Origin: an uncultured Acidobacteriota bacterium
GTDB taxonomy: Bacteria > Acidobacteriota > Thermoanaerobaculia > Gp7-AA8
Direction: 5' to 3'
Length of the DNA stretch: 64,000 bases
Assembly (NCBI GenBank): GCA_963741955.1
Contig: CAVUKB010000005.1
Location: 704,001 to 768,000, forward strand
Shown: piece after piece, positions 9,348 to 10,991 of the stretch
How the letters are laid out: every line of letters begins with the position of its first letter
Position numbering within the stretch: the stretch's first letter is position 1
Made by a program: the position numbers and the translations under genes
The notes under the pieces: model-generated
What the model was told of the DNA's origin: nothing
Database searches by the model: none
Seen by the model: the letters and a program-made list of their open reading frames with translations, nothing else

Positions 9348-9377
9348 TTGACATCCCTCCCCCTCCTCCCCCATACT
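9348..9377 (+). promoter_or_regulatory. Sigma70 promoter of the met leader
   Basis: TTGACA (9348-9353)-N18-CATACT (9372-9377). Confidence 0.65.
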
Positions 9378-9388
9378 CCCCCGCCAAC

Positions 9389-9460
9389 ATGAAACCGACG
9401 TTCGCCAGCTTCTCGATGTGTCCCATGTGTATGCGAGCCTGCTCCAGCGAGCGGGTGTAG
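9389..9460 (+). CDS. Met/Cys-rich leader peptide (23 aa, MKPTFASFSMCPMCMRACSSERV)
   Basis: ATG 11 nt after the -10 box; clustered Met10/13/15 and Cys11/14/18 codons; upstream of Met biosynthesis genes and alternative hairpins. Confidence 0.7.
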   Translation: MKPTFASFSMCPMCMRACSSERV

Positions 9461-9566
9461 CCGGACACGTCCCGACTCACCCGCCGCGCCAAGCCGGATG
9501 CGGTGAGTCGGTCTCCTGAAGCTCTTCCCCAACAAGTCGTCACGTTTCCTTTCGAGCTCGATTGAA

Positions 9567-9605
9567 CGACCCCTCGCACCGGCGGCGCCGGTCGAGGGGT
9601 TTTTC
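9567..9605 (+). terminator. Intrinsic terminator (attenuator) in the metY leader
   Basis: acccctcg(c)accggc-ggc-gccggtcgaggggt followed by tttt. Confidence 0.8.
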
Positions 9606-9671
9606 GTTCACCCAGGGTCACATCGAAAGCGAGACGGACGGCAACGAACAACGACAACCAGGAGAAGAGCC

Positions 9672-10991
9672 ATGACCGATCGAGACTACCGTTACGAAAC
9701 GCTTCAGGTCCACGCAGGACAGGCGCCCGCCCCCGGTACGAACGCGCGCGCCGTTCCGATCTACCAGACCACCTCGTACACCTTCGACGACAGCGGGCAC
9801 GGCGCCCGCCTCTTCGCGCTCGAGGAGTTCGGCAACATCTACACCCGGATCATGAACCCGACCACCGACGTATTCGAGCAGCGCATCGCAGCACTGGAGG
9901 GCGGCGTCGCCGCACTCGCCACCGCGAGCGGTCAGGCGGCGCAGTTCCTCGCCCTCACCACGCTCGCCGGCAGCGGCGACAACATCGTCTCGACCAGCTT
10001 CCTCTACGGCGGCACTCACAACCAGTTCAAAGTCGCGTTCAGGCGGTTCGGGATCGACGTCCGTCTGATCGATGGCGACGATCCGGAAGACTTTCGCCGC
10101 GCCATCGACCAGCGCACTCGAGCTCTTTACGTCGAGACGATCGGCAATCCCCGCTTCAACATCCCCGATTTCGAAGCTCTCGCGCGCGTCGCCCATCAGG
10201 CCGGAGTCCCTCTCGTGGTGGACAACACGTTCGGCGCGGCCGGCTACCTCGCCCGACCGATCGATCACGGCGCGGACATCGTGGTGGCGTCGGCCACGAA
10301 ATGGATCGGGGGGCACGGGACGTCGATCGGCGGAGTGATCGTCGACTCCGGACGCTTCGACTGGGCCAATGGCCGCTTTCCGACATTCACCGAGCCTTCG
10401 CCCGGATACCACGGCCTGAACTTCCATCAGACGTTCGGCCCCACCAGTCCCTTCGGAAACATCGCGTTCATCATCCGCGCGCGGGTGGAAGGGCTCCGCG
10501 ACTTCGGCCCCGCGCTCAGTCCCTTCAACTCATTCCTCCTTCTGCAGGGGGTGGAGACGCTCTCTCTCCGCGTGCAGCGTCACGTGGACAACGCGCTCGA
10601 GCTCGCGCTCTGGCTGCGCGAGCAGCCGGACGTCGCGTGGGTCAGTTACCCCGGCCTCGAGGATCATCCCTACCATCAGCTGGCGACAAAGTACCTTCGC
10701 CACGGATACGGCGGCGTTCTCGCGTTCGGCATCCGCGGCGGCGAAGATGCGGGGCGGCGCTTCATCGACAGCGTCGAACTGGCGAGTCATCTGGCGAATG
10801 TGGGCGACGCCAAGACCCTGGTCATCCACCCCGCATCGACCACTCATCAGCAGCTCAGCGAAGCAGAGCAGCAATCTGCAGGTGTGACCCCCGATCTGAT
10901 CCGGGTGTCGGTCGGGATCGAGCACATCGACGACATCAGGGAGGACTTCACCCGCGCGTTCGAAGGCGCCCGGGCGAAGGCAGTCGCATGA
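9672..10991 (+). CDS. metY: O-acetylhomoserine aminocarboxypropyltransferase (sulfhydrylase)
   Basis: [22 protein letters not shown] lysine [33 protein letters not shown]. Confidence 0.95.

Follow-up and report, generated by a model that had tools for sequence, protein, structure and literature searches.

The operon metY-metX-hom, carried on a 64,000-nucleotide stretch of DNA from an uncultured Acidobacteriota bacterium (hereafter the window, in whose numbering coordinates are given), is preceded by a leader that we read as a ribosome-mediated transcription attenuator with Met and Cys sensing codons. From the sequence elements and the modelled folding, we put the probability of this assignment at roughly 0.8. 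With the pairing segments numbered 0 to 5 (Table 1), the leader would operate as follows. When charged elongator Met-tRNA and Cys-tRNA are ample, the ribosome translating a short open reading frame (sORF) in the leader would reach the TAG codon within segment 1 and cover this segment; segment 2 would then pair with segment 3, segment 4 would stay free to form the 4:5 terminator, and the polymerase would stop near 9604. When either tRNA is scarce, the ribosome would stall at codons 10-15 and cover segment 0, so that segment 1 would pair with segment 2 once the latter is made, segment 3 would pair with segment 4 as the antiterminator, and transcription would read through into metY-metX-hom. If the leader is not translated, helix 0:1 would form, so that 2:3 and 4:5 would form as well and transcription would terminate.

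Dual sensing of Met and Cys fits the operon because its first enzyme fixes sulfide into homocysteine, and also because the metY subfamily includes bifunctional O-acetylhomoserine/O-acetylserine (OAH/OAS) sulfhydrylases. A preliminary description of this DNA, made from the sequence, had already proposed such a sensor and had named metY-metX-hom as its target. The operon indeed lies directly downstream of the leader, its three genes are identified by profile matches, and an ATGA overlap is found at both the metY/metX and the metX/hom junctions.

Leader ORF, terminator and alternative helices

The promoter-like site and the near-leaderless 23-codon ORF of the preliminary description are both found where it placed them. 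A consensus scan finds no other sigma-70-like site within 9000-10000, the mean in shuffled sequences being 0.1. The ATG of the leader ORF is located 11 nucleotides (nt) past the -10 hexamer, and neither a Shine-Dalgarno (SD) sequence nor a purine-rich ribosome-binding site is present 5' of it. Therefore, leaderless or near-leaderless translation would be required, and the start of the transcript would lie a few bases 5' of the ATG. Met or Cys occupies five of the six codons 10-15, within the run M10-C11-P-M13-C14-M15-R-A-C18. Three Cys codons of the ORF are scattered among four Met codons, and no Cys codon stands next to another. The rare Arg codon CGA (9434-9436) directly follows M15, and C18 is located at 9440-9442. 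Such clusters are uncommon in the 5.44 Mb genome of the organism, in which only 47 windows of eight codons contain at least five Met/Cys codons in all six frames; by estimate, this count corresponds to about 0.0014 expected sense-strand clusters per 324-nt leader.

Table 1. Features of the metY leader and its operon in the window. Helix coordinates and energies were obtained by folding sub-stretches of the leader.
Feature	Coordinates	Strand	Details
Sigma-70-like promoter, TTGACA-18-CATACT	9348..9377	+	10/12 consensus positions
Leader ORF MKPTFASFSMCPMCMRACSSERV, 23 codons + TAG	9389..9460	+	ATG 9389, TAG 9458-9460
Candidate sensing codons M10 C11 P12 M13 C14 M15	9416..9433	+	modelled stalls
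Segment 0	9415..9444	+	outer arm 9415-9423 with 9463-9471; inner arm 9437-9444 with 9449-9456
Segment 1 (GCGGGTGTAGCCGG)	9451..9464	+	spans leader stop codon
Segment 2	9472..9484	+	partner of segment 1 or 3
Segment 3	9494..9511	+	partner of segment 2 (hairpin) or 4 (antiterminator)
Segment 4	9567..9583	+	terminator 5' arm
Intrinsic terminator	9570..9604	+	bulged GC-rich hairpin 9570-9599, then TTTTT 9600-9604
Helix 0:1	9415-9471		-26.9 kcal/mol
Helix 1:2	9451-9484		-20.2 kcal/mol
Helix 2:3	9472-9511		-26.2 kcal/mol
Helix 3:4	9493-9583		-30.2 kcal/mol; duplex alone about -23.1 to -24.6
Helix 4:5, terminator	9570-9599		-28.2 kcal/mol
SD sequence of metY, AGGAG	9660..9664	+	from sequence
metY, O-acetylhomoserine sulfhydrylase, OAH/OAS sulfhydrylase subfamily	9672..10991	+	PF01053 5e-135; TIGR01326 695.8 bits, cut-off 495.1
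metX, homoserine O-acetyltransferase	10988..12076	+	NF001209 377.5 bits, cut-off 331
hom, homoserine dehydrogenase	12073..13191	+	PF00742 3.9e-43, PF03447

The leader as a whole folds better than all of 100 shuffled sequences (z = -4.8), and folding of its sub-stretches recovers the five pairing segments and the terminator of the preliminary description at the positions it gave. The terminator hairpin and its T tract lie downstream of the leader ORF and 70 nt 5' of metY, the first structural gene; a simple terminator scan overlooked the hairpin because its stem is bulged. A further segment, segment 0, is found inside the ORF, and in the modelled ribosome-free fold its two arms both sequester segment 1. 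The leader is thus modelled as a six-segment arrangement, in which 0:1, 2:3 and 4:5 alternate with 1:2 and 3:4 and from which an untranslated transcript should also terminate. The his leader has this same six-segment layout.

To model the ribosome, we ended the folded RNA at the terminator loop and kept everything as far as 12 nt past the A-site codon unpaired to represent the footprint. In these prefix folds the proposed switch logic is reproduced in silico. With the ribosome stalled at M10, C11, M13, C14 or M15, helix 1:2 and then helix 3:4 form, and 11 of the 13 nt of the terminator 5' arm are paired with 9493-9507. With no ribosome, or with a ribosome at the stop codon, helix 2:3 and the terminator form, and the upstream pairing of the arm falls to 4/13 and 2/13 nt, respectively. 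The Met/Cys cluster listed in the preliminary description runs as far as C18. Its M10-M15 part behaves as a sensor in the model; a ribosome at C18 covers part of segment 1 and gives no antiterminator. Therefore, codons M10-M15 are taken as the sensing codons, and C18 is probably not a sensor.

Conservation among relatives and recurrence across phyla

Forty relatives were searched. All of them have Cys/Met pyridoxal-phosphate (PLP) paralogues, and a full-length metY orthologue (62-81% identity) is found in only six, which together with the window give seven leaders for comparison. Two further leaders, one from genome G144 found with a covariance model and one from contig L117 found by a metagenome pattern scan, bring the related set to nine. 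A -35-like hexamer is present in all seven compared leaders (TTGACA in six, TTGACT in L007), and TTGACA occurs in the two additional ones as well. All seven also contain an sORF that lacks an SD sequence and whose ATG is found 39-44 nt past the first base of the -35 hexamer. The Met/Cys run, which the preliminary description expected in orthologous leaders, is found in the sORF of all nine, taking forms such as CCMC...MC...M, CMCTMRMC, MCCMRM, MVMCMRPM, CMCMCMC or CMCMCSM among the seven; outside the run the leader peptides differ. A hairpin is located 5' of metY in each of the seven, followed by at least four T in six and by an interrupted T tract in L004, and an SD-like AGGAG (AAGG in L005) belongs to metY in all seven.

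The covariance model, built from four leaders and applied to 151 genomes of the same class (150 others and that of the window), matches only the window leader and that of G144, which has the same layout and the peptide MSYATSARATAAHISSMCMGMCMRMR. This form of the leader is therefore rare, and covariation statistics are weak. The pattern scan of metagenome contigs yields 20 matches, among which L117 is a true homologue with metY downstream and the same layout; L116 lies inside a coding sequence and was rejected, and the remaining 18 showed no Met/Cys sORF in the scan.

A look for covarying stems was among the checks that the preliminary description proposed. In a five-leader alignment, 88% of the cells of helix 1:2 are paired, and a shift of the partner by 1-3 columns lowers this share to 35-58%; three pairs are changed on both sides, a count equalled by 9 of 500 shuffles. 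The complementarity underlying helix 3:4 is likewise seldom matched when the cognate arm is shuffled (4/500 for the window, 5/500 for L004 and 14/500 for L002). Prefix folding of the relatives' leaders gives a clean switch in two of them, with 9/12 nt of the terminator arm paired upstream in the stalled states of L003 against 2/12 without a ribosome and 4/12 at the stop codon, and 7-9/11 in those of L007 against 4/11 and 0/11. The result for L006 is less clear (9/11 stalled, 7/11 without a ribosome through local partners, 4/11 at the stop codon).

The CGA codon seen in the window leader is frequent in the related sORFs. It accounts for 9 of the 28 Arg codons in eight of them (L001-L007 and L112) and for 10 of 205 in seven metY genes, a comparison among kin sequences that carries no p-value and that does not include metY of G144. 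CGA lies inside or beside the Met/Cys run in six of the eight sORFs, mostly adjacent to Met codons, and a slowly decoded CGA next to the sensing codons could sharpen the stall.

Two relatives' loci show further features. In L003 (G013), a second hairpin and T run (…GACGCCTGATCAGGCGTC TTTCTTGTTTTT) are located at about 1330-1365, between segment 3 and the main terminator, and this leader may have two terminators in series. In L006 and L007 (G038 and G034), the gene adjoining the metY leader on its 5' side has a Gly-rich tail at its end, which, as read from the translation-like sequence, would be typical of small RNA-binding proteins of the RRM (RNA recognition motif) type.

To cover more distant bacteria, we took the best 80 metY loci, one genome per species, and dropped one that had a flank of only 48 nt. 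An sORF was counted if it started with ATG, had 8-70 codons with at least five Met/Cys in eight codons, and lay no more than 600 nt 5' of metY. Such an sORF is found on the sense strand of 31 of the 79 upstream regions, compared with none of the 79 on the antisense strand, none of the 79 inside metY on either strand, and 0.06% in shuffles. The carriers include many families of Bacteroidota, Ignavibacteria, Gemmatimonadetes, Eisenbacteria, Gammaproteobacteria, one metagenome-assembled genome (MAG) of Hyphomicrobiales, and Acidimicrobiia; among ten cyanobacterial metY loci, none reaches five Met/Cys in eight codons. The leaders of Bacteroidota are mostly Cys runs, and those of high-GC lineages alternate Met and Cys. 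The codon order varies and the frame nevertheless stays open, which points to selection acting on the codons themselves and not on a nucleotide motif. A strict rule of a hairpin followed by four T finds a terminator after only 12 of the 31 sORFs; this rule overlooks interrupted T tracts, such as those seen by eye in L048 and L054.

We lean towards the wider view that the window leader is one form of a widespread class of ribosome-read Met/Cys attenuators guarding the direct-sulfhydrylation gene metY, a class that, as far as we found, is undescribed. It would extend over Acidobacteria-like bacteria, Gemmatimonadota, Bacteroidota, Ignavibacteria, several Proteobacteria and Acidimicrobiia, sometimes in tandem and sometimes stacked behind a S-adenosylmethionine (SAM) riboswitch.

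Candidates for both arrangements were seen. A Hyphomicrobiales MAG contig (L076) carries two Met/Cys sORFs one after the other ahead of metY (about 1090-1480), …CPMCMCMCM… and …GCMMMMCCRM…. Both have a hairpin and T run of their own behind them, and the locus looks like a tandem attenuator. Two Acidimicrobiia MAG contigs carry a SAM-I riboswitch (L050, 1249-1331, 74.2 bits; L059, 1095-1183, 71.2 bits), followed by a short ORF and then by metY. The ORF reads MC..M.M.MCM in L059 and CC.M.C in L050, the latter scoring only 4 in the eight-codon window. Each of these two leaders would thus hold a riboswitch and, downstream of it, a candidate leader peptide.

In the organism's own genome, 20 of the 47 Met/Cys clusters fall in short frames, and only that of the metY leader combines an ATG, a T run and gene context. 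Two of the others were inspected and 17 were judged from the listing alone; no second convincing sORF was found among the 20, nor a Met/Cys 'ribulon' in this genome. The whole genome has no match to SAM-I or SAM-IV. A match to SAM-II (RF00521) that, at 29.9 bits (E 1.7e-4), falls short of the cut-off of 36 (G000:C7:241751-241826 on the minus strand, L115 1501-1576) is located directly 5' of a gene fusing homocysteine S-methyltransferase with methylenetetrahydrofolate reductase (MTHFR). It is probably a real SAM-responsive element. It suggests a division of labour, in which the SAM level would govern the methylation step and tRNA charging the sulfur-fixing step.

Around the window leader itself, two tandem repeat arrays adjoin the -35 hexamer, TGTCGGACC repeated 5.7 times (9261-9312) and CTCGCCT repeated 4.4 times (9313-9343). 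They are not seen in the upstream regions of the relatives and could be a regulator site, an UP-like element or a mere microsatellite. Further 5', a 643-codon open frame (7284-9215, plus strand) bounds the stretch 9348-9671 that separates it from the operon; neither this frame nor the long one on the other side of the operon (13086-14258, minus strand) has a Pfam match at E<=0.01.

Evidence against attenuation and rival explanations

Several observations weigh against the attenuator assignment. When the full-length leader is folded to minimum energy, the terminator is retained wherever the ribosome is placed and also without one; the switch must therefore be kinetic, and for this reason prefix folds were used instead. 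In the prefix folds of L004, the stalled states are separated from the untranslated one, but the stop state also gives the antiterminator. Those of L002 have 9-11/12 nt paired in all states, and there is likewise no discrimination in L005. The full-length fold of G144 already favours the long-range pairing, and this leader was left out of the prefix scoring. In L003, the 3:4 pairing is no better than in shuffles (110/500). Even in the window, a ribosome-free prefix of 97 nt also prefers helix 1:2, and the outcome without translation is therefore uncertain. The 2:3 helix derived from the window fits the alignment poorly (58% of cells paired). This poor mapping is due to a register shift in the alignment; each leader folds its own 2:3 hairpin, and RNAalifold gives a consensus with compensatory pairs. 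Covariation as a whole comes from few and closely related leaders, with only six close ones, and is supportive but not decisive. Finally, Met shortage should also reduce initiation with fMet-tRNA, which would oppose read-through.

Among the rival explanations, the one that survives best, and still an improbable one, is an RNA switch that binds a ligand or a protein, such as an unrecognised riboswitch of the SAM/S-adenosylhomocysteine (SAH) type built around the 2:3 hairpin, with the ORF being incidental. Nowhere else is the sequence of the leader as well conserved as in the 2:3 hairpin and the GCGGGTGTAGC box, a comparable CCGACTCACC...GGTGAGTC stem lies behind the sORF of the Acidimicrobiia contig L059, and the same genome seems to use the SAM-II-like element described above before another Met gene. 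However, the preliminary description had seen no SAM-I or T-box consensus, and Rfam gives the same answer. Nothing in the leader reaches the gathering score, the window having one tRNA elsewhere, and at E<=10 the region 9200-9750 contains no SAM riboswitch, T-box or other relevant family. The four matches obtained there are at chance level (E 2.8-7.2), being to animal microRNA or long non-coding RNA families and to one unrelated small-RNA family, and a SAM riboswitch or T-box in the leader was therefore rejected. In addition, the frame, the spacing between promoter and start codon, and the Met/Cys run are retained where the nucleotides are not, and Met/Cys sORFs are found ahead of metY again in lineages whose leader RNAs are quite different. 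In L050 and L059, the true SAM-I riboswitch is additional to the sORF and does not replace it.

Very unlikely, in our judgement, is that the sORF controls translation and not transcription, with the metY ribosome-binding site being freed on stalling, or with a lack of translation bringing about Rho-dependent polarity, and with the hairpin and T tract having no regulatory part. The closest published system, the mycobacterial polycysteine sORFs, works in this way according to the accessible text of bioRxiv 10.1101/834739, and the read-through RNA, folded to minimum energy, has 9520-9529 paired with the SD region of metY. This pairing, however, is equalled by 125 of 300 SD shuffles in the window, and in only one of the seven leaders is it matched by fewer than 10 of 300 shuffles; sequestration of the SD sequence by 9520-9529 was accordingly rejected as chance. 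The strong hairpin and T tract ahead of metY, whose position is conserved, and the complementarity of the terminator 5' arm to segment 3 also argue against this explanation.

We give slightly less credit still to a leader peptide that, while nascent, would respond to a small molecule (free Met, SAM or a sulfur compound) by halting its ribosome, in the manner of TnaC and tryptophan. Peptides rich in Met and Cys could provide binding sites for ligands or metals while in the exit tunnel, but no peptide sequence is fixed beyond the Met/Cys run, in which the order and number of the two residues vary, and the modelled stall gives read-through, whereas a sensor of excess end product should do the opposite. 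Least probable of all is that the frame is open by chance, or codes for a small protein rich in Cys and Met that has its own function, and that the terminator just ends an upstream or small transcript: spurious open frames are plentiful in high-GC genomes and the leader frame runs upstream to an in-frame ATG at 9233, but this ATG lies upstream of the promoter, the cross-phylum sORFs are confined to the sense strand, the sORF is tied to metY in all nine related leaders, and the two other short Met/Cys frames inspected in this genome lie inside long ORFs.

Relation to known leaders and biological meaning

The attenuator we propose resembles the classical ones (trpL, hisL, pheL, thrL, leuL and ilv of Proteobacteria; trp and ilvB of Actinobacteria) in having codons for the pathway product in a short ORF, hairpins that exclude one another, an intrinsic terminator ahead of the first structural gene, and a fold that is selected by the position of the ribosome. 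It differs from them in its specificity for Met and Cys, which is not reported in the literature we searched, and in an ORF that lacks an SD sequence and would start at or beside the 5' end of the transcript. Leader-peptide attenuators before amino-acid operons are also described in the accessible part of a transcriptome study of Flavobacterium psychrophilum (PMC9723704).

Also among the closest systems are the leaderless polycysteine sORFs of mycobacteria and the Cys-run leaders of Actinobacteria; that Cys-rich leaders occur in Actinobacteria had been stated in the preliminary description. As far as the accessible text of the sources goes, these have Cys codons in a leaderless ORF before sulfur genes, and pausing on the Cys codons relieves repression, as we propose for the metY leader. 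Canestrari et al. (bioRxiv 10.1101/834739) describe a 'Cys ribulon', in which leaderless polycysteine sORFs attenuate translation by SD sequestration with no transcription termination; according to these authors, attenuation by an upstream ORF had not been described previously for cysteine. Seliverstov et al. (2005; PMC1262725) report, in the part available, actinobacterial Cys-run leaders without terminators and no RNA element for methionine operons. The polycysteine leaders of these accounts thus have consecutive Cys codons only, no intrinsic terminator, and SD sequestration with polar effects, whereas in the metY leader Met is dominant and a terminator alternates with an antiterminator.

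SAM riboswitches (SAM-I/S-box, SAM-II, SAM-IV and SAM-V) of other bacteria have the same targets, metY, metX and hom, occupy the same place in the 5' leader, and often use the same terminator/antiterminator read-out. Unlike them, the metY leader has no detectable aptamer, and its signal would be tRNA charging relayed by the ribosome rather than SAM. The metXZ RNA element of beta-proteobacteria (PMC4239095) shares with our leader a conserved 5' region, a terminator and alternative pairings before genes of the homoserine-to-homocysteine step; by its description in the accessible text, however, it is a pseudoknotted RNA with six conserved regions and no reading frame, and it has no sequence likeness to the metY leader.

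For the control of methionine genes, the accessible portions of PMC1262725 and PMC4239095 list SAM/SAH riboswitches, T-boxes, MetJ, MetR and SahR, and no leader-peptide attenuator. Nor is a Met leader peptide mentioned in the available parts of PMC2965389 (Naville and Gautheret 2010), PMC11109978 (Narunsky et al. 2024), PMC4239095 (Leyn et al. 2014), PMC4833913 (Korolev et al. 2016), PMC7366714 (Ryan et al. 2020) or PMC545781 (Rodionov et al. 2004). A full-text literature search, with most subscription journals outside its coverage, found no description of a methionine leader peptide and returned Cys-only leaders of Actinobacteria. This agrees with the earlier statement that a joint Met and Cys sensor is not known as a characterised class. 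As far as we found, then, the mechanism itself, leader-peptide attenuation, is known, and the novelty lies in the Met and Cys specificity and in the promoter-proximal start without an SD sequence.

If true, a Met/Cys-codon attenuator before metY would fill the methionine gap among leader-peptide controls and account for the regulation of metY in lineages without a known riboswitch or regulator, and one leader would combine the signals of two amino acids for which sulfur is the common limiting element. Leaders of this type would mark unannotated translated sORFs and offer compact parts responsive to Met and Cys. Should the wider class hold as well, methionine would join Trp, His, Phe, Thr, Leu and Ile/Val among the amino acids with classical leader-peptide control, and many bacteria would gauge their supply of sulfur amino acids through tRNA charging besides SAM.

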